Position numbers and translations under genes: made by a program. This document shows, piece after piece, positions 1,110-64,000 of a DNA stretch of 64,000 nucleotides (the stretch's first letter is position 1; each line of letters opens with the position of its first letter). This stretch comes from a phage: assembly GCA_025611195.1 (NCBI GenBank), contig GCA_025611195.1_4718.1. One strand, 5' to 3'. The notes under the pieces were generated by a model. It was not told the DNA's origin, made no database searches, and saw nothing but the letters and a program-made list of their open reading frames with translations.

Positions 1110-1589
1110 TCAGTCTTTCAACAGCTCGGCTGCATACGCACTGATGTTGTCGCGAATATGCTTAACCTGAGTTGTCGGGAAAGATTTCTTATACGCGGTG
1201 GTCAGACGTCCGTAAACCTGTTTCTTCTCGTTAGAGCCGAAACCAACTTCAGCGCTACGTTGAACTGTTGCAGACACAACGTCTTTGCCCAGCGGCAGGG
1301 TTACAGAAACAACGTCGACCTGTTTGTTGTCCGCCATGAACTGTGCACCAACGCGGCCAACCGCCAGACCGTGAGCCAGGCCAATGTCGGTGGTCAGTTT
1401 CTGTGCTTTTTCCAGGATTTCTTTTTCTTCCGGTGTTACCAGAGTACCCAGGAAATCACTGCCCAGCTTCTGGCTACCTGATTCGTCCAGTTTAAGACCG
1501 GCGGCGATTTTATCAGAAAGAGCCTGAACTTCCGGACGTACGTTAGAAGTGGTTTCAGTTGCTACGGTGGTTTCTACAGCTTCAGACAT
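1110..1589 (-). CDS. hypothetical protein (159 aa), predicted early gene
   Basis: ORF with GGAG 8 nt upstream of ATG; CTATATTACCT promoter-like motif about 120 nt upstream. Confidence 0.6.
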   Translation of the reverse strand: MSEAVETTVATETTSNVRPEVQALSDKIAAGLKLDESGSQKLGSDFLGTLVTPEEKEILEKAQKLTTDIGLAHGLAVGRVGAQFMADNKQVDVVSVTLPLGKDVVSATVQRSAEVGFGSNEKKQVYGRLTTAYKKSFPTTQVKHIRDNISAYAAELLKD

Positions 1590-9900: not shown

Positions 9901-11344
9901 GAGCTAATTTTGCGGCTTTTGGTTTGACTTCAACATACTCGGCGAGCGTGAGTCCAGAACCGTCAGGTGCTTCGATTTCATGGATGGCGTCAGCGTTACG
10001 CATCGCTGCTTTATATTGGACGCCACTTAACTGCCCCGCATCGGCCAGATCGCTCGCGCGCACCAACACCGCATCCGATAACGACTGAATATACTCACCG
10101 TGTGTTTTTGGTAACGTTGCCGCGTCAAAGACATCAACCTTTTCTTCTTCGGTATCGTCGGTAACGACTTCGAAGAGATCGTCGGTAATGTCCTGATCTT
10201 CATCAGGTTGGAAATCCGGTTGTACTTCTACCCCGGGTACTTCACGGACATCTTCGAACGTGCGTTCTACAACGGCGTTCCATGCATCAGCGTCATCGTC
10301 TTCATCCGACCCACCAACCAACTCCGCTTCTAACTCATCGGGGTCAAGAACAGTGGCCAGATCCTCACCGTTAGGAAGCACGACGTCACGATCGTCGTAT
10401 TCCGCATCCGGGTCGTCGGTAAGAATATCTCGCTCTTGACGAAGAACCTGTTCCTCTTCTTGTTTCTGTTCTTCTTCATTCGCGCTCTGCGACCACAAAC
10501 GTGTTACCGCCATCATCCAACGACGCTGGAAGGTTTCAAGTGTCGTTTTATCGAGTTCTTCCCCTTCCTTTACAAGCCCGGTACGCCATTCCTCCAGCAA
10601 GCCGAGATTCAGCGTAAAGAAGTACACACCGTCTGTAAATACAACGTTAAGCTTATCTAGCGTGGCTCTGTCTAACGAAGCCATCGTGCTGTTCTCACGA
10701 TCGGTTCCCAACCAGCGGAAGAAGTCAAAGAACGACAGCTCCTCTGGCGTGGCGAAATTCATGAGGTTGTTGCGGGTCGGTGCCTGTTGCGTGGTGCGCA
10801 TCAACGAAATCTTCGGCAATGTTGTCGGTAAACGGAACAACAAAAAGTGTTGACGATCGCTTTGCTGTGCGATTTCGTTGGCTTTCGACCAAATTGTTTT
10901 ACGTACGTTGAACCATTCATCATACCAACGGGTGAGCGTTGGACGATAGATGTACATGTGGTTAAGATGCGCGTAGTTAGCAACGATCTGAGCGTTGATG
11001 TTTTTCTCCACCGTACTTAGATCGGTAACCAAACGAAAACGACGATGCGATGCACGATAATCCAATTTCGCTCGTGGAAGTTGGAATCGTTGATCACGTC
11101 GAGGTGCGCCTTGTTTGGTTGCGAGATCATCCGCAAACGAAATCCATAGTTGAGCATTTTCTTTACTCAGCATGTATTCGTTTTCTGGAGGACCTATCAA
11201 TGATGGATCCGTTGCGGTGTAATGATAGACAGCATAACGCGGCAGCTGCAATAGCTGCACTAAACGTAATCTTGGTGATAGTAGCTCTTGGTAGCGTCTG
11301 ACACCGAACTGTCGGTAGTAATCAAGGTATTTAAGTTTTGCCAT
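6998..11344 (-). CDS. RNA polymerase beta'-like subunit, C-terminal fragment (1448 aa)
   Basis: NNAGRWLTRQLTAM resembles the beta' bridge helix (ANSGYLTRRLVDV). Roughly 100-aa highly acidic insertion. GGAG RBS lies inside the end of the upstream ORF. Confidence 0.5.
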   Translation of the reverse strand: MAKLKYLDYYRQFGVRRYQELLSPRLRLVQLLQLPRYAVYHYTATDPSLIGPPENEYMLSKENAQLWISFADDLATKQGAPRRDQRFQLPRAKLDYRASHRRFRLVTDLSTVEKNINAQIVANYAHLNHMYIYRPTLTRWYDEWFNVRKTIWSKANEIAQQSDRQHFLLFRLPTTLPKISLMRTTQQAPTRNNLMNFATPEELSFFDFFRWLGTDRENSTMASLDRATLDKLNVVFTDGVYFFTLNLGLLEEWRTGLVKEGEELDKTTLETFQRRWMMAVTRLWSQSANEEEQKQEEEQVLRQERDILTDDPDAEYDDRDVVLPNGEDLATVLDPDELEAELVGGSDEDDDADAWNAVVERTFEDVREVPGVEVQPDFQPDEDQDITDDLFEVVTDDTEEEKVDVFDAATLPKTHGEYIQSLSDAVLVRASDLADAGQLSGVQYKAAMRNADAIHEIEAPDGSGLTLAEYVEVKPKAAKLAPAKVMPEADVIVDKSLCKSTLAVWDKHYVEHVMQKDIAAAVVAVQQAGYPVTGYKVEDVVDVMGDYQVITIKLAPVGGVPTTFPVMLPKVRKDGIYVVNGIKYRMRKQRVDKPIRKVSSSEVALSTAYGKVFVKRSERVVNNAGRWLTRQLTAMYYDKSSPLTTLKRGNVFDPAVKVPYYFAVLARNYTQIQFADWDIRLDIKTLPEFIGEDRFNEQLAEGLLTFARNTSDEFLAIDERNQLYICQSGQTPTPVGTFPDFFGINAAKMPIEAADLEFMGVRIPVGIVLSYLGGLTPLLEHLKANYRTVPRGSRMGLAADEFAVSFDDESLIFSKDDRMTTLLLGGFNEYRNYIGYARGAFDNRDIYFNVVDGAGLKVRHLRELELMERLFVDPVSRTLLQNMGEPTDFAMLLLRAVELLLDDWAPNTNDVNYQRFKTYDKFAELVYKDLVGAIRQNENSSQGNRQKISISPVSVWNQILDDSASIVIDETNPMLDIKQGEEATMTGIGGRSKTSLRRARDREYDKSDVGIVSEGTKDSGDVGISAYLAPNANIVSVYGETRPFDEKTDGISSVMSTSALAVPAVDRDDGKRLVFVGIQHNRMIAAEGYDVQPWRTGGETVIAHRVGKLFAAAAQGDGVVKKVTKTALTVQYDDPELGEEVFQLGTIIGKGPGKYYPHDLITDYKVGDRVKDQDVVVFHRLYFKRDWWNPGQVVWRAGVLSLVGILDIPETHEDSSYIFDNLAERLVTPSIKSRTLIVDAHLNIRGLVKIGDHVEPRTILATLEEPIATDLSDESQEAVEALRRMSQYNPRADVHGEVVQIDVLYRAQIEDMSETMAALVGDADKARAKRVKELKLNEATTGRINNSNVRIDGNPLGENQIAIRIFMRYDLGAGMGDKGTFAAQAKSVVSSVGHGVNKTEDGHTLDAIFSGTSIANRIIGSPEVVGTVNLGLLYATERAVDIYFNDAK

Positions 11345-11347
11345 GGG

Positions 11348-12994
11348 TTAGGCTCCACGAGGTCCCGTTAAGTTGCGTAATAGGAACGCAACCGTATCGT
11401 AACCAATATCAATGTTGAATTTATTTTTACCACTTACCCAGAAAGCTCGCTTCTTGTGCGAGTTGGTAATTTCGTCAATAGCTTCCATGGAATAAAGAAC
11501 GTTAACCGAGACCGTATCACCATCAAAGTCCCCACCAAGTCCGGCAAGGTATGGGGCTGGGACAATCGTCGTTTCTACGAACGATGCATTAGGTAACCAG
11601 TCGGGGTATTCCCATGCGATAAATCGTTCATCCGTTATTGGTTCCCAGTTACTATCCAGTTCGGTTTTCGGTTTTGCGGCAACGGTTGTACGTGCGTAAC
11701 AGGTCAACGGAATGACGGATTGCATACCGGATACCGGATAACGTGTTACCATCGCAGCCAGGTTATTCCAGTATTTATATCCGGCGATGTACACTAATTC
11801 GGTATACGTGATAGGGTGAACATCCGCACCAGGCTTATTCAGCATCTCTGGAGGTAATTCACTCATGCCACGGAATAACCGAAACGAATCATTATTTACA
11901 TAGACGAGACAAAGATAACGTCCATTAACCATGATAGGTTCATTGCGCACACCTGGATCGCTTAAGGTGTTCAATAAACGTTCTATTCCGTCCCACGTTG
12001 TAAAGTCATCGATGGTGTCTGGATCAAGCGTGACGCGCTCACGTTCCATCGTTTCGGTATCGATAAGCTCAACTTCGGTAACATCACGGACAAATATTTC
12101 CTGCAAAATACCGGTACGTAACGCGTGTTGCGTCACGGGTAGGGCGGCTTTGCTCATCTGGTATAACCCTAACTGAACAGCTGTGCAAGAAGGCTGGTTA
12201 GGCGACCCTAGTACCTCCGTTGTGGGGTTAATTGCCGAAATAACGTTACGGGTTGAGTTCCAAACGCGACGTGAGCCGAACTTACCTTGGAAGATCCCTT
12301 TCTTACCCTGGAACATATCCAACAACAAAGCGTAGATATCGTTAAATGTTCTCTGTAAGCTCCAGCGTTGACCGTCGTAAACGGGATCGGAATAATCTTT
12401 TAATCCATCAGGGACGGTGTTAGAAATTGCAAGGAAACGACGATACAACTCCGTGATTTCTTGCTCGCTTTCATACCCGCCTTCTTTTACTTCTATTTCA
12501 CGTAAGCCCGCAGGTAAAACCAGTAAGTGACGGGTCATCGCTTTGAACATGTTCTCTTCGACAACTTTAATTCGTAGCTCTCGTTGAGCTGAACCCGTTG
12601 AAACGAACTTGATATCCGCGACGTGTTGTGCAAAGAACCCGTATCCTGTTTGTCCTGTTAACGCATCAGACGCAACGAAGTCGCGTTGTTCAGGATCCCA
12701 ACGAGCATACGCCTTTCCTGACATGATATCACCATAGAGGTGTTTTAGTCGAATGAGGCGGTCGTAAATGACAGGGTGCAGGATTTCAACTTTGCATTCA
12801 ATCACCGCAAATCGACGATCTCGATCTTCACTACCTGCACTACCAAAGATGGTGTAAGAATAGAAACCATCATCGTGGAAATTACCGGTGCTTGGGTCAC
12901 GAATGCTCATGCTCGTGATCTTGGGGAGAAAACGTAACTGCTGTTTATCGAGGTGCAAAATACTAATATTAAACGGCTCTCTGACTTTAGCCAT
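11348..12994 (-). CDS. RNA polymerase beta'-like subunit, N-terminal fragment with DFDGD catalytic motif
   Basis: C-terminal GGDFDGDTVSVNVLYSMEA matches beta' NADFDGDQMAVHVPLTLEA. Start placed at ATG 12994 (GAGGAG RBS) not ORF-track 13036. Confidence 0.6.
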   Translation of the reverse strand: MAKVREPFNISILHLDKQQLRFLPKITSMSIRDPSTGNFHDDGFYSYTIFGSAGSEDRDRRFAVIECKVEILHPVIYDRLIRLKHLYGDIMSGKAYARWDPEQRDFVASDALTGQTGYGFFAQHVADIKFVSTGSAQRELRIKVVEENMFKAMTRHLLVLPAGLREIEVKEGGYESEQEITELYRRFLAISNTVPDGLKDYSDPVYDGQRWSLQRTFNDIYALLLDMFQGKKGIFQGKFGSRRVWNSTRNVISAINPTTEVLGSPNQPSCTAVQLGLYQMSKAALPVTQHALRTGILQEIFVRDVTEVELIDTETMERERVTLDPDTIDDFTTWDGIERLLNTLSDPGVRNEPIMVNGRYLCLVYVNNDSFRLFRGMSELPPEMLNKPGADVHPITYTELVYIAGYKYWNNLAAMVTRYPVSGMQSVIPLTCYARTTVAAKPKTELDSNWEPITDERFIAWEYPDWLPNASFVETTIVPAPYLAGLGGDFDGDTVSVNVLYSMEAIDEITNSHKKRAFWVSGKNKFNIDIGYDTVAFLLRNLTGPRGA

Positions 12995-16200: not shown

Positions 16201-19200
16201 TTAAAACGCGGTGCGGTTGAGATCTACAAACAGCTTGACAAAACGCCCGACGTTTACGTCAAGGGAGAATCAACGCCTCGTCTATTATCCATGGTGTTAG
16301 CAGCGGGTGGGTATTTCCGTCGCTCTGATGGACAAACCATCAAAAATCTTGAAGACATCGATGGCGATGTTGTTGATGCACAAGGTAACGTCGTACTTAC
16401 GCTTGCCGACATGCAGAAAGGGCTTGTCGATAAATACGGTAAAGCGATTCGTCGCTTAAAAGAAAAGCTCATCAACTTCGGTGTAAAAGCTTTTACATTA
16501 CCGTTAACGCTGCTACGTAAGACAAAGGACATCCTTAAAACCCTTCCAGGTAAAACCGTTAACGGCCTACGACGGATGGGATTAAATTTCCAATCACCTG
16601 ACGCATTATTGGTGGGAACAACGTCGAGCATGGTAGATCGCCTCGACGCTATTTACCAGCTTCTCGACCAACGTATGCCGGGTGGTGACAGGGATTATCG
16701 CGATTGGAATGGGGATGGTGTTCGAGAAGGATCGTTGGAAGACCTGAAACGTAAACGTGCAGCCAAGGAAAACGGTAAGGATGACACCGGCAAAGATTCC
16801 AATAAAGGAGAAGAAAAGGAGAAGAAACGAGGATTACTCGGAAGCCTTTTCGATATGCTTGGCGATACCGCATTAGGTAAACGACTCATGGCGAGTCCGC
16901 TTGGAAAAATTCTAGGTGGTCTTGGGGCGGTGTTAAGCGGCGGAGCATCGTTAACCGGATTGTTGGGCAAGGGTCTCATTAGTGGAACCGGCGCGCTAGT
17001 CAAGGGAGGACTAAGTGCGGCAGGATGGTTAGGCCGTGGTGCGTTAATGGCGGGCGGGGCCGCATTGAACGCTGTTGGTGGTTTATCGGGATTAGGCGCA
17101 TTCCTTATATCACCTGTTGGGCTTGCTATTGCTGGCGGCGCATTGGCTGCTTATGCAGGATGGAAGATCTATCAACATTTCGCCGAGAAGCCCGACCCGA
17201 TGCAGAAGCTCCGTCTTATTGCATACGGTGCAAAAGGGGACGATAAAGACTTCAATAAGAAGCTGCTTGCGACAGAAACATACCTCACCGACCATGTGGT
17301 TATGACCGGGGATACCATCGGATTCGATCCGAAAGCGGATTCTGAAAAGATTCTCGAAATCTGGGAATTGTCCCTGGAAGATTCCGACCGAATGAACGAA
17401 TGGAAACGCTGGTATCTGCATCGTTTTATTCCTGTTTTCGCTCGTGCGTACAAACTCTGGAAAGAGCATATGCCGGACGAGAAGAAATACATGGAAATGG
17501 ATAAATATCCGAACGGTGAGAACAAGGTGAAATGGTCGGAAGCGTTTATCTGGCCTTCTGATAGTCCTGACGGCCCGTATTACGTCGAAGCTAACCCGTT
17601 GGGTTCTTCTGGTGCGACGCGTTATATTGCTGGTCAAGACGTCAAAACCTTGATGCTGAAACAACTCGAAGCCATCAAGAAAGAGTACCAGAATCAGATT
17701 AAGCAATACACTCATGATGAGGCTATTGCTGATTGGTCACGGATGTCTGACACACAACGTAAATCCGTTGCACCTAACGCATTACGTGGTCAGAAAGCGT
17801 CGTTACGTTTTAACGATAAACGTTACAACAGCGCTGGCGCTAAAGGACGACAGAAGCTTGACGCAACCGCCGTTATTGAAAGCGTAGACCGCCGTGGTAG
17901 GAAATGGGTTGCTGGCGGGTACATCGATGAACTCACCAGTCTCCGTGTTCGCGCGTACGGTATCAAGGTTCCGTTGTTAAGTCAGATAAAAGTGCTGATG
18001 GAACTCGAAGACGCTGTGGAACCTGGTGTAGTCGCTGAAGGTAAAGGGGTTAAATACGGTGGCGATCTTGTCGCGCTCTACAAGAAATTCGCGACGAAGT
18101 TCGGAAGAGACGTTAACAGCAAGCAGGATCAGGATATCTGGTTTGCTTGGATGAATAACCGTTTCCTGCCTGTCTTTTTAACCTATTACCAACAAGTTAG
18201 CGACATGGGCGGTCAAGGTCTTCTGTCCGACGTGGTACAGAACCTGAAAGACAGCCAACGTTGGGAAATCGGTGAAGCACTTGTCGCAACGCAATACCGT
18301 GATGAGAAAGGTGCACTACAGCCTGTATGGACCTGGAATAGTTGTGGTTTCTCCGGTACTGAAGCTAACACCACCAGCAGTTCAACAAAGAGCCAACTCG
18401 ATCTGTTAAAAGAATATGCGGATAAAGAGAAGGTTCGTGAGAAGAACGCGGAAGCATCGCAAGAGGATACCGAGAAATTATCGAAGATCCAAGAGCTGAT
18501 GATGAAGCAGGCTGGGTACGAGAAGAAAGACGGTGTTTGGCAGAAGAAATCTCGCATTACCGGTGGGATGAGTAACGCCGAAGCGAATTACAACCCCAAT
18601 GGGAATAGGGTAGGTGCAAGCAGCTTTACTGCTTCGGCTACTTCCAGTGCTGGGTTGGGGTCAACCGGCGATCTTACCGGATTGCCTAACATGGGCTTAC
18701 AGAAACCTGCAACGGGACCAGGTCCTGAAGCTGGGCGACGTACGCTTGTTAAATCTGCTGTGAAACACGGTATTACCGATCCAATGGAAATGGCGATGTT
18801 CCTTGCGAACATCGAACATGAATCGGGGAACTACAGTCACGTACGTGAGGGGAACTATAAGACACCAGAGCGTCTTAAACAGGTCTTCCCTTACAAATTC
18901 CGTGATGTGCAGGATGCCGCACAAACGATCAGCATGGGACCGGAAGCGGTATTCGAACGTGTGTATGGTAATCGTAAAGATCTAGGAAACACACAGAAAG
19001 GGGACGGGGCGAAGTATTTAGGACGTGGCTTCATTCAGGTTACCGGTAAAGCTAACTACGCTCGTCTGTCCAAGACCTTGAATAAGGATCTTGTCAGCGA
19101 TCCGACCTACCTGGAAACGCCGGAAGGTGCGGCGGAAGGTAGTGTCGCATGGTGGCTCAACCGAGGTAACGTGTTACGCGATCCCGCAAAACGGGGTGAC

Positions 19201-48848: not shown

Positions 48849-49682
48849 TCACGATGCCAGGTCAGCGATATCCCAATGGGTATAACCAACCTCGCGGATG
48901 AGCTCTGCTGTTTCTTCGAACAGTGGGGTAGGGCTAATGACCGGTAACCATTTCCCCTCTCGGGTTATCTTGACTTCGACGGTCTGTAAGTTCGTGTTCC
49001 AACGAACATCATAAACCAGCGCATAGCCAAGAGGATGAACAAGTCCATCTTGGTTAAATGTCTCCAAAAGACCTCGTACGTCTTCTTCGTAGGATGTTTT
49101 CGACAAGACAGCACGTACTCGTCGCAGTCTCTTCGTGATAACCTTTCCCAGCTCGATGCTCTCCCAGCCTGTCATGACGCAAGGATTGTCATCACGACGA
49201 AGAGACCGAGAAATATAAATAGAATCGCTCGCGGTAAGGTGTACCCACCCAAGATCGCAGTATGCGACAGGTCGTGGTGATTCTCCTTCGATAACCGTCG
49301 GTTCATCCAACATCGCCACAACACCGCAGTCTGCGAACTCCGGCGATACTTCATCCAGCATCTTAATACGGCTTTCTTGGCCGGTATGGTCAGGATCAAC
49401 ATGCGCGTAGTAGTAATTAGGCTCTATCGCACGGTATTGCGCAATACGTCTACGGAAGTCAGGATCCTGCATTCCCAGCGGATGGTAATACGCAAGCTGT
49501 TGCTTTATACCATCCTTGATTACCAACAGAAGATCTTCGCGATCTGATGCGGGATCTTCCACCACGATGTATTTAACAATCGCTTTCAGGTTCTTAACGA
49601 TGTTATCCGGAAGTTTCTCGATATCTCGAGCATCGTAGACGCGGTTAACTACAGTGCTTACAAGGTGTTTTGATAGGCTCAT
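48849..49682 (-). CDS. hypothetical protein (277 aa), paralog of 50039..50821
   Basis: C-terminal VHPLGYALVYDVRWNTNLQTVEVKITREGKWLPVISP aligns with VHPLGFAWVSEVRYNPRKKRVEAKVLNERWLPVVQP in the other gene. Confidence 0.55.
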   Translation of the reverse strand: MSLSKHLVSTVVNRVYDARDIEKLPDNIVKNLKAIVKYIVVEDPASDREDLLLVIKDGIKQQLAYYHPLGMQDPDFRRRIAQYRAIEPNYYYAHVDPDHTGQESRIKMLDEVSPEFADCGVVAMLDEPTVIEGESPRPVAYCDLGWVHLTASDSIYISRSLRRDDNPCVMTGWESIELGKVITKRLRRVRAVLSKTSYEEDVRGLLETFNQDGLVHPLGYALVYDVRWNTNLQTVEVKITREGKWLPVISPTPLFEETAELIREVGYTHWDIADLAS

Positions 49683-49751: not shown

Positions 49752-50042
49752 TTAACTCCCTCTGTGGCATGAAAACAGAGCGTCTAATTGCTCCCGTTGT
49801 TCTTTTAAGTATGCGGGAAGCTGGTCTTCCCGTACCGTTCCGATTTCCAACGTGATGTACCAGCGTTGTTCGGAAGCCTGCCATTGAAAACTGCTCTGTA
49901 ACCTCAGGATGTTGGGATCGTGTACCATGCTTGCGCTGTAACGGTTGAACCAATTCAGGTATTCTGCTTTCCCTTCCTCGTCGGCAACGTAACGCTGCAC
50001 GCTGTTCTTCCCTTTGTTCTCGTATCCTGTTGCACGTATCAT
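49752..50042 (-). CDS. hypothetical protein (about 96 aa)
   Basis: Frame chosen over overlapping Arg-rich frame 49747..50091. Start ATG 50042 overlaps upstream stop (ATGA). Confidence 0.45.
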   Translation of the reverse strand: MIRATGYENKGKNSVQRYVADEEGKAEYLNWFNRYSASMVHDPNILRLQSSFQWQASEQRWYITLEIGTVREDQLPAYLKEQREQLDALFSCHRGS

Positions 50043-50821
50043 GCGAACGTTTCTCCTGTAACGTGTTGTGGGCGTTGTAGCATGGTAGCATCCCATTGTA
50101 CGATCCGGCTCCGGCTTACCCGCATCATGATGGATTCATCGTCAAGCCCTGGTTGCACAACCGGTAACCAACGTTCGTTAAGCACCTTCGCTTCAACCCG
50201 TTTCTTGCGTGGGTTGTAACGCACCTCGCTAACCCAAGCGAATCCAAGCGGATGGACCACCCGTGGATAATACATGCGAAGCAATTGATGCATCCGATCC
50301 AGTACCTCCAGGTCAGCATCGGTCAGGTATGGTTTCACCATGGTAAGCTTTTTGGTGTAATACGTTCCGGTGGTATGATTGATCCAACCAGGAAGCACGT
50401 GATGGAACCCTACCTGTAATGGCGTATCCCCGTTCACCTTCAACCAACCGTATCGCCCTGTCGCACGTCCCTCATCGTAAGCAACTTGTGCAAGCTGATC
50501 GATGAACGCACGATCGGTGATCTCGATGCGTTCCACCCGTTCATCCAACGCACCGCGTACCACGAATCCGCTCGCGCTCATCCGCGCAGGATGCTGGCTG
50601 CGATGCGCGTACCAATTCTTGTTGCCGGTAAGCAGGTAAGGGTACGTGTGAGCACCCCGCCAAACAACCGTTCCGTTCGTCCCATCAACACAGTGTACAT
50701 ACATCCCATCTTGACCGTTGTTGTAGCATGCTACCTTCACGCATTCGTTTTGAACATCGCTCGGTAACGCCAGGTATTCACCTTCGGTAAACATGGTATC
50801 AAAAATGATTTCGTCGTTCAT
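50039..50821 (-). CDS. hypothetical protein (260 aa), paralog of 48849..49682; predicted early gene
   Basis: Paralogous C-terminal block; CTATATTACCT motif about 80 nt upstream. Confidence 0.55.
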   Translation of the reverse strand: MNDEIIFDTMFTEGEYLALPSDVQNECVKVACYNNGQDGMYVHCVDGTNGTVVWRGAHTYPYLLTGNKNWYAHRSQHPARMSASGFVVRGALDERVERIEITDRAFIDQLAQVAYDEGRATGRYGWLKVNGDTPLQVGFHHVLPGWINHTTGTYYTKKLTMVKPYLTDADLEVLDRMHQLLRMYYPRVVHPLGFAWVSEVRYNPRKKRVEAKVLNERWLPVVQPGLDDESIMMRVSRSRIVQWDATMLQRPQHVTGETFA

Positions 50822-50902
50822 CTAAAAAAGATCCTCTGTTTTTCACGTTAATTAAACAACGTATTGATTTCTATTTAACGCAATACGAACATTGTACGTA
50901 TG

Positions 50903-50923
50903 CATCATGAAGGTAATATAGTC
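50903..50923 (-). promoter_or_regulatory. early-promoter-like motif (21-nt GACTATATTACCTTCATGATG)
   Basis: About 80 nt upstream of ATG 50821, at the edge of the AT-rich non-coding region. Confidence 0.5.
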
Positions 50924-51064
50924 GTGAAAGGATTTGCATTAAAGCAAGGGTTTTGTTTTAAGAAGGGATGGATTTAGAAGAGGTGTTTCAAGGAAGGTAA
51001 ACGAGGATAGGTATTTTGATTTAAGTAAGATGTTATCTGTATTTGTTAAAAGTGTATTGTCTAT

Positions 51065-51396
51065 GTTATCTTGTTTATCTTAGGTTATGTCTTATTGTTT
51101 AATCGTTTTATCTTTGTAGGTTAAATTGTTCTAGTTATCTTGTTGTATAAAGTAATTCAATAAGCTTATCTTCAAAATGATAAATAACTTGTGTTTATTG
51201 TACATGCTAATCAAAAAACCATTTGTGATACTCTTCTTCACGTTGTTCATCAGAGTATCTCGTCTATACTCATTGCATTCGTATACGACATAACCGTTAT
51301 ACGCTAACGCTACGCTTATAGCTTGATAACTCTAAGGATAAAAACATAAACTCGCTTCGCTCGTTTAGTTTTTCTTTTTCTTAGAGTTATCTTGTT
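51065..51396. repeat. iteron-like direct repeats (A)GTTATCTTGTT(G) in AT-rich non-coding region
   Basis: Three copies at about 51065, 51134 and 51386; no ORF of 60 aa or more in this region. Confidence 0.4.
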
Positions 51397-51557
51397 GCTC
51401 GTCTCTAAAGGACTTCGCTCCTCCCCCGTCCCCCGAAGGGGCCGAGGTCGTGGAAATTTTACTTTCCAAATACATTTACAACATCTGTAAACTTTTACTC
51501 CAGGTACTTAATCTTATCATTAGAAATTATAAAGAGAAGAATAAACACAAACATAAA

Positions 51558-51589
51558 CCTTCCTCCAACCCAACAGGGAAGGAGGAAGG
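51558..51589 (-). terminator. family-A palindromic hairpin
   Basis: Stem CCTTCCTCC/GGAGGAAGG, loop AACCCAACAGGGAA; T-rich tract follows on minus strand. Confidence 0.5.
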
Positions 51590-51602
51590 GGATTAATTAA
51601 AA

Positions 51603-52496
51603 TTATTCGGAAACGTTGTAACCGAATACCGCTTTACCGTAGGTGTGAGTACCGTCAGCTAATGACAGCACCAACACGTGGTTGTACGTAGCGTTAACGC
51701 CTTTATCGGTGGAATCGGTGGTAGCACCGTTATAGACGAAAGTAGCCGTTTGCAGATTGGCTTTCAGCTCGGTGATGATCTCGTCGCCCACACCCGTCTG
51801 CTCTTTGATCAGCGTGGTCAGGTTACCTGCCAGGCTTTCATCGATCTTGGTTTCGTTACTGGTAATCGCCTGTAAACCTGCGGTGTAGGTACTGAAGTCT
51901 AACGGATAGGTTAACAGACGCGCTGAGGTCTTGGTGCCATCGCCTTCATCAACGTAGGTTAAGTTACCCAGGTTGGTAACCTTGATGATGTTGGACAGAT
52001 CCAGCGTGGTGTTATAAACCTTAACTTGAACAGAACCGTACCAAGCCAGCGAATCTTCTTTGGCTTTCAGGGTGATCGTCTGGATACCATGATCGTCGAA
52101 GGTAACCGGCGTAGCTAACGTATCGGCTTTGATGTCTTTCGCTTTATCCAGGAACTTCTCACCGGAAGGTGTGATCATACCGTAGCGTTGAGCTACAAGG
52201 TCAACCACATCACCGATGGTGGTGTTTTTATTAACGTTAACGCGTACGGCGATCTTCTGGAACCACTTAGCCAGATCCAGACGATGATAGGTAACATCGC
52301 GGTCATTGAAGTAAGGAGTACCTTCACCAGGGCTAAGCGTTAAAGTTGCATCTGGAGCAGAATCGCTTTTGGATTTAAGAACGTATTTAAGGTCGGTGGG
52401 TTTGAAGTTGGCACCCGTATCGGCGTTGAGTGTGTTAATCTCATCAACGATAAGTTGCCAAGGTGTTTTTAAAGTAAGTGATACTTGAGCTGTCAT
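51603..52496 (-). CDS. hypothetical structural-type protein (297 aa)
   Basis: N-terminal region homologous to 52643..53185 (YFNDRDVTYHRLDLAKWF vs FYYDRLALSEVF; TIGDVVDLVAQRYGMITPSGE vs SIKASELVSKLVTKFGLASLTGE). Confidence 0.55.
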   Translation of the reverse strand: MTAQVSLTLKTPWQLIVDEINTLNADTGANFKPTDLKYVLKSKSDSAPDATLTLSPGEGTPYFNDRDVTYHRLDLAKWFQKIAVRVNVNKNTTIGDVVDLVAQRYGMITPSGEKFLDKAKDIKADTLATPVTFDDHGIQTITLKAKEDSLAWYGSVQVKVYNTTLDLSNIIKVTNLGNLTYVDEGDGTKTSARLLTYPLDFSTYTAGLQAITSNETKIDESLAGNLTTLIKEQTGVGDEIITELKANLQTATFVYNGATTDSTDKGVNATYNHVLVLSLADGTHTYGKAVFGYNVSE

Positions 52497-52533
52497 TTTC
52501 TTCCTCGATGGTTGTTACATTACTCTCAAAAGA

Positions 52534-52547
52534 TGTAAACGTTTACA
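52534..52547. promoter_or_regulatory. palindrome TGTAAACGTTTACA in divergent promoter region
   Basis: Perfect 14-bp dyad followed by TATATATAAAATGTAAATACTATG upstream of 52643..53185. Confidence 0.3.
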
Positions 52548-52642
52548 GAAATTAATATATCTTTATATATAAAATGTAAATACTATGGAGAACGACTCCG
52601 ACTCTCCTTTTCGACCATCAAAAAATCAGAGGATACATAATC

Positions 52643-53185
52643 ATGGCCTTAGACTTTAACAAAGCAGCCAAATCCCTTCTGCTTGATCTTATCAACACCA
52701 AAGCAACCCGCCCACTGACTGAAGAAGAACTGCAGTTCGGTACTCCGGGAGCATCTTCCGAACATGAAAAGAACACCGTTATCCAGCTGGATGCTGCAGC
52801 TGAAGCAGCTAACCTGCAGGGTACTCAGCAGTTCTACTACGATCGTCTGGCTCTGTCCGAAGTTTTCGCTGATGTAACCAGCGATGTTACTTTCGAACTG
52901 CCGCACGGCACTGACAGCATTAAGGCTTCCGAGCTGGTAAGCAAGCTGGTCACCAAATTCGGTCTGGCTTCCCTGACCGGTGAAATCAATGAAGAAACCT
53001 TCCAGCTGTCTGCTGGCACTGTTGGTGAAGTAACCCTGACTGCGATCGAGGGTGGTCTGGTATATACCGGCACCCTGCAGGTTGCACTGACCTACGCACC
53101 AGCACCGAAAGACGAACTGGCAACCGTTCTGGCGAATAACGTAGCTGAAGGTTTCGTGAAACCTGAAGTTGCTGTCGTTGGCTAA
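52643..53185 (+). CDS. abundant small protein (180 aa), probably virion-associated
   Basis: Strongly host-optimal codon usage (CTG, GGT, ACC, TTC, GAA) unlike neighbours; GAGGA RBS; strong stem-loop immediately after stop. Confidence 0.65.
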   Translation: MALDFNKAAKSLLLDLINTKATRPLTEEELQFGTPGASSEHEKNTVIQLDAAAEAANLQGTQQFYYDRLALSEVFADVTSDVTFELPHGTDSIKASELVSKLVTKFGLASLTGEINEETFQLSAGTVGEVTLTAIEGGLVYTGTLQVALTYAPAPKDELATVLANNVAEGFVKPEVAVVG

Positions 53186-53194
53186 TAAGCACGT

Positions 53195-53234
53195 AGAGCA
53201 ATAGTATGGGTTTTGTACAGCTCGGCTATTGCTC
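53195..53234 (+). terminator. stem-loop after highly expressed gene
   Basis: 10-bp stem AGAGCAATAG/CTATTGCTCT with 20-nt loop, 10 nt after stop of 52643..53185. Confidence 0.4.
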
Positions 53235-53384
53235 TTCTACAATTTGGTTGTAACAATCTGCGTGGTTGCACGCTTATCTTTCTCAATGAGCGCTTCATAC
53301 GAAGCGTGGTGTTGAAAGGGTTGTGGATCTCCTCAAGCGGCCAGGGACCCAGACCAACCTGAATAAACACAAACACATGTTAAG

Positions 53385-53416
53385 CCCCTCCTCATCCGTT
53401 ATTGGGTGGGGAGGGG
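53385..53416. terminator. CCTCC-type hairpin in convergent intergenic region
   Basis: CCCCTCC ... GGAGGGG stem in the 290-bp non-coding gap. Confidence 0.35.
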
Positions 53417-53479: not shown

Positions 53480-54115
53480 TTACTCAACACTGAACCCGTT
53501 CAAGATGATCGCTTCATAACGCTTACGTTCACGACGTTTGCGTGCCTGCCAACCGTAGATGAATTTCTCATCTTTCTCGCGTCGCTCTGCTAACTCGATG
53601 TAATAAGTGCTCTGCATATCCAGCATCGCATCGATGAGATAATCCTTACCGGTTGCACCACGCTTAGCGATGTATGCGTCGAGCGCGCTTAACGTCGCAG
53701 GTCCCATCAAACCGTCGGCGTTGATATTTTTCCAGTAAGTTTGGCGGTTGTTCATGACGTTCAGATAACGCTGGAGGTTCTTAACCGGAACGGTTTTGCC
53801 TGCGTTGATACCCAGGTCAAAGAGACGATCAGCCAAGAACACGGAACGTTTCATGACCTCATCAAGCTTCATCTTATCCCAGAAGTGGGTCTTGTAGATA
53901 AAGAACGCCATTTCCGTGGTAAGGTTACGCATGTTACCGTCCCAGCCGAATTTCGTTTTCAGCGTGGTTTTGTATTGATCGGCGAGTGTTTTCGTAATGC
54001 CGTGGTTCGTGATTCCGCCCGAATCATCGGGATCGTCGACGTAACCTGCTTCGATGCTAGTTTTGTCACGAATTATGAATTCGCAAGTAAAATCTTTTTC
54101 AGTAATCTTAGCCAT
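53480..54115 (-). CDS. endolysin, GH108-type muramidase with PG_binding_3-like domain
   Basis: SIEAGYVDDPDDSGGITNHGIT matches the GH108 EGGY...GG.T.YGIT signature; INADGLMGPATLSAL matches the peptidoglycan-binding motif. Confidence 0.65.
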   Translation of the reverse strand: MAKITEKDFTCEFIIRDKTSIEAGYVDDPDDSGGITNHGITKTLADQYKTTLKTKFGWDGNMRNLTTEMAFFIYKTHFWDKMKLDEVMKRSVFLADRLFDLGINAGKTVPVKNLQRYLNVMNNRQTYWKNINADGLMGPATLSALDAYIAKRGATGKDYLIDAMLDMQSTYYIELAERREKDEKFIYGWQARKRRERKRYEAIILNGFSVE

Positions 54116-63566: not shown

Positions 63567-64000
63567 TTATGCCACGTATAACGTTAGATAACCGTCGATG
63601 AGCGTATTCATCACACTGAGTTGAAGTACAACAGCTTTACGAGCGTCTGTACGTACACCAAATGGTAGTGTTTTGAAATGCTCTGGATCGGCTATTACTT
63701 TCGCATTCTGCAAGTTGAGCGGTCCAGGTATTGACGACAATACCCAACGATCGTTGGCCGTAAGACCGTCGATCTCTTCAGAGAGACCCAATTGCAGTGC
63801 GTTCATTTCTGCGATTAATGCCTCCGATTGTGTATCACCTGAGGTTAACGTATACCCATCAGTAAGTGACGTTAGAACATCATCAGACATGAACCAGTTG
63901 TACGAAACAATAGCGCCTGGGAGTTTATCACTATCTCGATCGATGAGATAATTCAACCCAGCCAACATATTGTTGCGAATGAGGTTGTTGAGGTCGTTAT
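63567..64000 (-). CDS. hypothetical protein, 5' end truncated by window edge
   Basis: Reading frame stays open upstream of the ORF-track Met at 63968 through to position 64000. Confidence 0.45.
   Translation of the reverse strand, partial: NDLNNLIRNNMLAGLNYLIDRDSDKLPGAIVSYNWFMSDDVLTSLTDGYTLTSGDTQSEALIAEMNALQLGLSEEIDGLTANDRWVLSSIPGPLNLQNAKVIADPEHFKTLPFGVRTDARKAVVLQLSVMNTLIDGYLTLYVA

Follow-up and report, generated by a model that had tools for sequence, protein, structure and literature searches.

Strong codon adaptation and rapid protein evolution in the short member of a divergent DUF7941 gene pair of a Goslar-like phage

We describe a pair of divergently transcribed genes in a 64,000-nucleotide stretch of phage DNA (GenBank assembly GCA_025611195.1, contig GCA_025611195.1_4718.1; the whole stretch is referred to as the window), in which a 180-aa protein is encoded with codons as well adapted to Escherichia coli as those of ribosomal protein genes and a 297-aa paralog shows the same bias to a lesser degree. 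Both open reading frames (ORFs) were confirmed at the coordinates listed below, divergent and separated by a spacer of 146 bp. The region 51400-53400 aligns over its full length with Escherichia phage vB_EcoM_Goslar at 91.8% nucleotide identity, Goslar being a member of the genus Goslarvirus, a nucleus-forming jumbo phage with a 237-kb genome, and the gene order of the window tracks that of Goslar from ~201.5 kb past the end of the genome to ~28.2 kb. Both Goslar orthologs are annotated in RefSeq as 'virion structural protein'. They share with the present pair the lengths of 180 and 297 aa, the divergent layout, the flanking endolysin and tail-fibre genes and the terminators, although the window alleles are distinct, with no database cluster more than 92% identical to the 180-aa protein. 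The divergent arrangement is kept in all relatives examined (Goslar and the contigs L008, L009 and L010). The features of the locus, together with a third member of the family at the window end, are as follows.

51603..52496, minus strand: full-length DUF7941 protein of 297 aa, ortholog of Goslar gp22 (gp022), 90.9% amino acid identity
52643..53185, plus strand: short-form DUF7941 protein of 180 aa, ortholog of Goslar gp23 (gp023), 86.7% amino acid identity
52497..52642, no strand assigned: putative divergent control region of 146 bp, from an alignment of five Goslar-like loci
52534-52547, in the spacer: perfect palindrome TGTAAACGTTTACA, the sole window match to TGTAANNNNTTACA (0.1 expected)
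52584-52587, plus strand: TATG, invariant in the five-locus alignment and situated 56 nt upstream of the 180-aa start, putative late-promoter motif whose +1 would be G52587
52587-52607, plus strand: 5' leader conserved in the five-locus alignment, beginning with a GGAGA...TCTCC hairpin
53195..53235, plus strand: hairpin followed by a T-rich stretch past the 180-aa stop, likely terminator (RNA fold -22.2 kcal/mol, z=-3.1)
51558..51589, minus strand: hairpin CCUUCCUCC...GGAGGAAGG followed by UUUAUGUUUGUGUUUAUU past the 297-aa stop, likely intrinsic terminator (-24.5 kcal/mol, z=-5.2, 0/200 shuffles as stable)
63567..64000, minus strand: 3' part of a third DUF7941 paralog, truncated by the window end, ortholog of Goslar gp31, 89.5% amino acid identity (PF25613 49.5 bits, profile positions 167-274)

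Since direct comparison of the 180-aa and 297-aa proteins by BLASTP is not significant (E=0.05, 21% identity over 96 aa), their paralogy is drawn from profiles. Both exceed the 27-bit cut-off of Pfam DUF7941 (PF25613), the 180-aa protein with 75.6 bits (E=6e-21) and the 297-aa protein with 176.7 bits (E=8.7e-52), and hhalign aligns the two families with a probability of 94.5% (E=7.5e-8), placing residues 8-152 of the short protein against residues 11-163 of the long one. A preliminary description of this DNA, made from the sequence alone, had assigned homology to the N-terminal region of the short protein; the homology stands but extends further, as the match to the N-terminal ~60% of the long protein takes in nearly all of the short one. 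The 297-aa protein covers the full profile and has the complete DUF7941 architecture of N-terminal domain (NTD), linker and C-terminal domain (CTD); the 180-aa protein is a short form that spans profile positions 4-173 of 276 and consists of the NTD and a tail equivalent to the linker, without the CTD. AlphaFold2 models of the two paralogs agree on the common NTD and on the missing CTD of the short form. The 180-aa protein is predicted as an alpha/beta domain (mean predicted local distance difference test score, pLDDT, 88.5) with a less ordered tail, and the 297-aa protein as an NTD at ~10-165 with the same order of secondary-structure elements, a linker at 166-193 (pLDDT <50) and a CTD at 194-297. 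Searched against the PDB with Foldseek, the 180-aa model matches the NTD of phiKZ gp127 (9xqd chain 0; E=3.8e-7, probability 1.00, TM 0.61/0.71), with no other PDB match below E=0.2 and none to known decoration proteins. The same chain (9xqd_0) is found by phmmer with the 297-aa protein (E=5.9e-7), and nothing is found among PDB sequences with the 180-aa protein, so that the short protein is connected to gp127 only via its long paralog and the fold search. The Goslar preprint (bioRxiv 10.64898/2026.04.21.720040) likewise describes gp22 and gp23 as DUF7941 paralogs of which gp23 is without the CTD, and reports that purified gp22 forms filaments several hundred nm long without the virion, as seen by negative-stain electron microscopy. 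AlphaFold3 modelling in the same work predicts head-to-tail assembly, in which the linker of one protomer docks onto the NTD of the next, and predicts polymerisation of gp23 too.

Codon usage was compared by the codon adaptation index (CAI), with weights taken from 31 E. coli K-12 genes of NC_000913.3 (28 ribosomal proteins, rpoA, tufA and fusA; 5,222 codons). The 180-aa gene has a CAI of 0.728, the highest among the 60 ORFs of the window (mean 0.380, standard deviation 0.094), and exceeds what the E. coli reference genes score on average (0.682, range 0.548-0.841; the poorly expressed gsp genes reach 0.337). It thus lies far above the window average and within the range of highly expressed host genes, as translational selection would have it. 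When its codons were re-drawn from the usage of 15 neighbouring genes the CAI was 0.384 +/- 0.028 with a maximum of 0.494, and none of 10,000 draws reached the observed value. The choice is most marked for Leu (CTG in 19 of 23, as against 19% of Leu codons in the 15 neighbours), Thr (ACC or ACT in 19/19), Gly (GGT or GGC in 12/13), Phe (TTC in 7/8), Glu (GAA in 15/17) and Gln (CAG in 7/7). As the GC content at third positions is 0.50 and neighbour-like, the bias is not an effect of base composition. Scans of the window for tRNAs and Rfam families were both empty, and phage tRNAs in the window therefore do not explain it either. The CAI ranking is the same whether Sharp-Li weights or weights from the real E. 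coli genes are used. The strongly host-optimal codon usage first noticed in the sequence is hence confirmed and lies far outside what chance would give, though three details need correcting. The preference had been listed for CTG, GGT, ACC, TTC, GAA and CGT-type codons, and it holds for all but the last, the gene having just two Arg codons (one CGT, one CGC). It had been called unlike every neighbouring gene, which is true locally but not across the window, where the gene at 1110..1589 has a CAI of 0.694. Finally, the 297-aa gene does not have the ordinary usage ascribed to it: its CAI of 0.565 ranks third of the 60 ORFs and was reached in 0/10,000 draws from neighbour usage (0.396 +/- 0.023 expected).

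The same pattern is found across the whole Goslar genome, which was assembled from five pieces and yielded CAI values for 232 ORFs. At the top stand the major capsid protein (0.804), gp58 (0.792), gp23 (0.727), gp214 (0.726) and chimallin (0.702); gp23 is third, about level with gp214, and gp22 is eighth (0.575). In purified Goslar virions gp23 and gp22 are among the most abundant proteins, with ~2,140 and ~580 copies per virion respectively and mass-spectrometry (MS) coverage of 90-94% (bioRxiv 10.64898/2026.04.21.720040). The label-free quantification (LFQ) area/mass in Table S4 of that study is highest of all proteins jointly for gp23 (229.0) and gp58 (229.7), with 110 for the major capsid protein. 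Matching 105 Table S4 proteins, a subset made up of the most abundant proteins listed, to Goslar ORFs by mass, we find that CAI and LFQ area/mass rise together (Spearman 0.58, p=6e-11; Pearson 0.68 on log scale). The top four CAI values of the window belong to the orthologs of gp23, gp214, gp22 and gp209, in that order, which is also the order of the Goslar LFQ values. The proposal that the phage makes the 180-aa protein in very large quantity, as might be expected of a major virion component, is thereby supported: its codon index is far from average and the abundance of its ortholog is anything but low. Codon usage goes unmentioned in the Goslar preprint. That codon adaptation scales with protein demand is a likeness to other translationally selected phage structural genes, such as major capsid genes, and CAI computed from raw sequence, which picks out the most abundant proteins, offers a cheap guide to the annotation of uncharacterised chimallivirus genomes. 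The gene at 1110..1589 (minus strand) encodes the 159-aa ortholog of Goslar gp214, 99.4% identical and second in the window by CAI; its sole match is PHROG 9746 (function unassigned), and gp214 is present at ~865 copies per virion without an assigned function in the preprint (bioRxiv 10.64898/2026.04.21.720040). Upstream of it lies TATATTACCTA, present also upstream of the Goslar chimallin gene, together with a TATG followed by a hairpin.

Where the short gene departs from such structural genes is in its protein evolution, as highly expressed proteins are usually slow-evolving and the 180-aa protein has the highest ratio of nonsynonymous to synonymous divergence (dN/dS) of its neighbourhood. 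Against Goslar the ratio is 0.01 for the gp214 ortholog (99.4% amino acid identity), 0.03 for the gp209 ortholog (98.8%), 0.20 for the gp22 ortholog (90.9%) and 0.30 for the gp23 ortholog (86.7%). Against the more diverged Goslar-like contigs L008 and L009 the 180-aa gene gives 0.48 and 0.41 (neighbours 0.02-0.10), with a dS of about 0.85-1.0 that is like that of its neighbours, and protein identity of the short alleles falls to 51-57% where flanking genes retain 85-98%. About twenty distinct clusters of the short protein at 90% identity are present in the database. The short gene thus combines the fastest protein evolution locally (dN/dS 0.3-0.5) with optimised codons, which is a new observation. 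Conservation within gp23 is highest at residues 8-25, which form the N-terminal helix, and at 157-175, a tail of the form ...DxLATVLAxNVAEGFxKP, and residues 76-137 are the most variable. In gp22 the most conserved part is the linker at 164-198 (21 of 35 residues invariant), though its pLDDT is <50. Conserved ends with a variable middle are the pattern to be predicted for a polymer joined head-to-tail whose exposed surface is free.

The diverged alleles also bear on the alternative that the short gene came from the host, or from some other source with host-like codon usage, and that its codon bias is a historical trace of acquisition or amelioration, as the preliminary description had allowed. 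Apart from the contrast with neighbouring genes, this notion has in its favour some database matches labelled E. coli, Shigella and Salmonella; these matches, however, sit in Goslar-like phage genomes of 236-249 kb, the family is overwhelmingly phage-borne, and the short gene is a paralog of its own neighbour. The L008 and L009 alleles have CAI values of 0.70 and 0.74, at 51% and 57% amino acid identity, and top their respective loci. As the CAI stays at 0.70-0.74 despite a dS of ~1 and this much protein divergence, the bias must be actively maintained by ongoing selection, and it is graded with measured abundance genome-wide. Amelioration is not needed to explain a phage-specific family of this kind, and we regard acquisition as highly improbable. 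Host-gene capture and chance were both rejected as the source of the bias.

Expression of the pair appears to be organised from the 146-bp spacer, which in addition to the features listed holds an AT-rich stretch and Shine-Dalgarno-like sequences for both genes. The arms of the palindrome are conserved in 5/5 Goslar-like loci and its centre is variable, and it is possible that it forms a regulator-binding site common to both genes. The invariant TATG recalls phiKZ, whose non-virion RNA polymerase has TATG as its late-promoter motif and starts transcription at the G (PMC4666361). Sigma-70-type promoters were matched 3 times, no more than the 4.5 due to chance, as expected since the phage uses its own RNA polymerases. 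Past the short gene, the Goslar equivalent of the hairpin at 53195..53235 is annotated as a terminator (17603..17637). Genome-wide in Goslar, a TATG with an immediate short hairpin at the presumed +1 G is seen at 16/175 intergenic and 47/1117 coding TATGs (p=0.008), lies upstream of many of the most abundant late genes (major capsid protein, gp23, gp214, gp88, sheath, gp7 and gp146), and marks genes of which 7/10 are in the LFQ top 25 (p=7e-6). In phiKZ late promoters an unidentified downstream sequence matters; one possibility is that such a downstream element is structural rather than a matter of sequence.

We propose a model for the pair that most reasonably fits these observations and those in the literature, and which we consider probable: the two genes would form a late-gene module whose DUF7941 paralogs build filaments carried by the virion, the short paralog being the bulk subunit with codons selected for its expression. 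The module would be self-contained within a Goslar-like chimallivirus, each gene monocistronic with its own terminator and the short gene presumably served by the TATG-type late promoter motif. The two paralogs would polymerise head-to-tail into long filaments that travel with the virion, gp23 being expected to do so like gp22. The 180-aa protein would then be the minimal unit, a globular NTD with a conserved C-terminal docking tail, and as bulk subunit would outnumber the 297-aa protein, which adds the CTD, roughly fourfold. Thousands of copies per particle would be needed late in infection, in a window without tRNA genes of its own, and this would select for fast and accurate translation, taking the short gene to the level of optimal E. 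coli codons seen in ribosomal protein genes and the long gene some way towards it. The filament surface, that is the middle of the NTD, would be free to vary or be placed under diversifying pressure, while the N-terminal helix and the tail or linker, as presumed subunit interfaces, would be conserved. Attachment to the peripheral baseplate and a role in host encounter are the likely setting of the filaments, in line with the 'DUF7941 fibre cloud' anchored at the peripheral baseplate that the preprint authors propose (bioRxiv 10.64898/2026.04.21.720040).

The position of the phiKZ homolog lends weight to the baseplate. There gp127 (and gp126), with the same NTD fold, belongs to the outer peripheral baseplate, gp127 occupying the tip of the baseplate star lobe (PDB 9xqd; PMC13250141). 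The systems differ in that gp127 shows 17% identity, that one copy per star lobe is modelled (six per virion) and not thousands, and that phiKZ has two family members only. Further afield, the domain is found at the head of fibres. A profile search with the short form returned 974 representatives at 50% identity, among them many short forms that stand alone (145-195 aa), duplicated forms, and proteins of >800 aa in which the domain is N-terminal. In the Klebsiella phage phiKp24, two of 14 fibres, the depolymerase fibres gp294 and gp295, start with a DUF7941 NTD (72 and 68 bits; gp295/gp294 at L013 3940..8064, with a further example at L012 11995..14064; the fibres are ~680 aa). The phiKp24 record names the genus Maaswegvirus and gives no family, and by profile matching DUF7941 is not chimallivirus-specific, contrary to the preprint, as Maaswegvirus-type Klebsiella jumbo phages carry the domain; a 2026 paper also reports a DUF7941 domain in Spiroplasma Spaid-like proteins. 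A domain that heads phiKp24 fibres and proteins of >800 aa fits an attachment or polymerisation module. A functional analogy may be drawn with branched tail-fibre systems (phiKp24; the T4 gp10-like adaptors of G7C/CBA120), where a small N-terminal module networks receptor-binding or depolymerase proteins, although the T4 gp10-like domains are of unrelated fold and these systems are without a stand-alone, massively expressed subunit that consists of the module only.

Competing evidence comes from SPN3US, whose paralog family B (gps 138-154, gp160 and others) proves to be DUF7941: gp142, gp143 and the SPAsTU ortholog of gp141 score 270-279 bits (the gp141 ortholog 276), and the 175-aa short form gp160 scores 42.6 bits; gp161, listed by the authors as a member of family B, matched DUF4376 instead. 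The SPAsTU gp141 ortholog is also reached by tblastn with the 180-aa protein. As in Goslar, a long form (gp141, 303 aa) and a short form (gp160, with a similar DLS...GF tail) stand out for very high copy number (PMC5694885, PMC10052503), and the SPAsTU gp141 ortholog has a CAI of 0.648, the highest of its tandem array. Unlike Goslar, SPN3US has ~20 members (~10 in Goslar), mostly in one tandem array, the codon bias of gp160 is moderate only (CAI 0.506), and the authors place the family in the head and not in the baseplate. The gp160 gene (L015 20240..20767) is a lone plus-strand gene divergent from its upstream neighbour, echoing the Goslar layout, and gp160 and the database homolog P0030 each have a Pfam Spiralin match below cut-off (gp160 E=3e-4).

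Several points weigh against the filament module as we propose it. Family B of SPN3US, including gp141 and gp160, is kept in particles of tailless mutants and is assigned to the head in two studies (PMC5694885, PMC10052503). Density for gp22 and gp23 is absent from all Goslar cryo-electron microscopy (cryo-EM) maps, and the Goslar CsCl preparation also captured nucleus fragments and PhuZ filaments (bioRxiv 10.64898/2026.04.21.720040); as self-assembling gp22/gp23 polymers could co-purify, 'copies per virion' may be overestimated. All abundance figures belong to orthologs 87-91% identical to the window proteins, polymerisation of gp23 is a prediction of the AlphaFold3 modelling in the preprint, and TATG at 52584-52587 is assigned to a late promoter by analogy with phiKZ. 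The fold of the 5' leader is not more stable than shuffles (z=-0.23), and as the hairpin is thermodynamically unexceptional we do not claim an mRNA-stabilising role for the leader.

From the first of these points follows a different placement, in which both proteins are abundant and head-associated, either as internal or ejection proteins or as fibres on the capsid exterior, their codons reflecting high copy number all the same. The match of gp142, gp143, gp160 and the gp141 ortholog to DUF7941 supports it, as does the presence of the family in tailless mutants among 55 head proteins (PMC5694885, PMC10052503), where densitometry of tailless particles gives >300 copies each of gp160 and gp141 (PMC5694885). 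Presence in tailless preparations could, however, reflect free filaments that co-purify, and the phiKZ model (PDB 9xqd) assigns gp127 to the outer peripheral baseplate. The capsid models of Goslar and phiKZ are without such a protein; the decorators built into the Goslar capsid model are gp77, gp146 and the vertex complex, with gp22 and gp23 outside the atomic model (bioRxiv 10.64898/2026.04.21.720040). Furthermore, MS coverage is 90-94% and propeptide removal is not reported, unlike most packaged head proteins, family members bear depolymerase, leucine-rich repeat or carbohydrate-binding domains typical of external fibres, and rapid amino acid divergence fits an exposed protein. We consider a head location unlikely, and the site in the virion (baseplate fibres or head) is contested, the head class of SPN3US being in conflict with the baseplate position of phiKZ gp127.

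The cryo-EM and purification data raise instead the prospect that gp22 and gp23 are not virion proteins, but free filaments in the cell or lysate, for example a scaffold for the late virion 'bouquets', that merely co-purify. This would agree with the formation of gp22 filaments several hundred nm long without the virion, with the presence of chimallin and PhuZ, both known from non-virion assemblies, in the same virion preparation, with the lack of cryo-EM density assigned to either protein, and with the CAI of 0.70 of chimallin, which demonstrates that a non-virion protein can be equally optimised. It is difficult to combine with the phiKZ homolog gp127, a bona fide ordered baseplate component, or with paralogs that carry enzymatic or binding domains and make sense on a particle only, and independent laboratories have detected the proteins in virion preparations of three genera; we therefore hold it to be improbable. 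Whichever of these locations holds, be it baseplate fibres, head-associated proteins or co-purifying polymers, codon adaptation reports high synthesis.

An extension of the virion-filament model, speculative and in our estimate doubtful, is that the short protein makes up the bulk of filaments of micron scale whose variable surface is the selected interface, and that the same filaments, anchored at the baseplate, tangle tails into the intracellular virion 'bouquets' of chimalliviruses. The variable surface would then serve to bind glycans or environmental surfaces, or to escape a host sensor of this abundant protein. Such sticky filaments would reconcile the head and tail assignments, because they would cling to any large particle.

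As orthologs of proteins described in 2026, in a family described since 2016-17, the pair is largely known. Added here are a quantitative link between codon adaptation and abundance, the finding that a very highly expressed protein is also the fastest to evolve in its neighbourhood, and connections that tie Goslar DUF7941 to SPN3US family B and to the phiKp24 fibres. The Goslar preprint contains neither the fast evolution of gp23, nor members outside chimalliviruses, nor the link to SPN3US family B, work that it does not cite (bioRxiv 10.64898/2026.04.21.720040). Three literatures that do not cite each other, on the Goslar 'fibre cloud', the SPN3US head proteins and the hyperbranched depolymerase fibres of phiKp24, are now connected, and the question exposed is at which site of the particle thousands of copies of a fast-evolving short protein reside. 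Should they prove to be host-recognition filaments, the diversity of their alleles bears on host range and on the design of phage therapy.

Downstream of the 297-aa gene lies a 781-bp AT-rich (33% GC) non-coding gap at 50822..51602, in which neither a tRNA nor an Rfam match was found by the scans of the window; it holds six co-oriented copies of TTATCTT, of 17 on that strand across the 64 kb. A similar gap of 854 bp is present in Goslar, and the gap could be a replication or regulatory region. Adjoining the DUF7941 pair are gp21-like paralogs at 48849..49682 and 50039..50821 (both minus strand), members of a gene family of variable copy number: the extra paralog (277 aa, 24% identical to gp21) is without a counterpart at this position in Goslar, and contig L008 has four in tandem (250-298 aa). 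Beside the 180-aa gene, the endolysin gene at 53480..54115 (minus strand) has a dS of 0.90 against Goslar where its neighbours have 0.25-0.34, which suggests a recombination patch, and its CAI is also raised (0.51). Farther away, the RNA polymerase subunit genes gp207 and gp205 of Goslar are separated by a group I intron with an HNH endonuclease gene (~2.2 kb, 211817..213710). The window is without this element: the Rfam scan gave no intron, and at 11344..11348 the orthologous ORFs of gp207 and gp205 abut, the upstream ORF being 562 aa as against 502 aa in annotated Goslar gp205, that is 60 aa longer.

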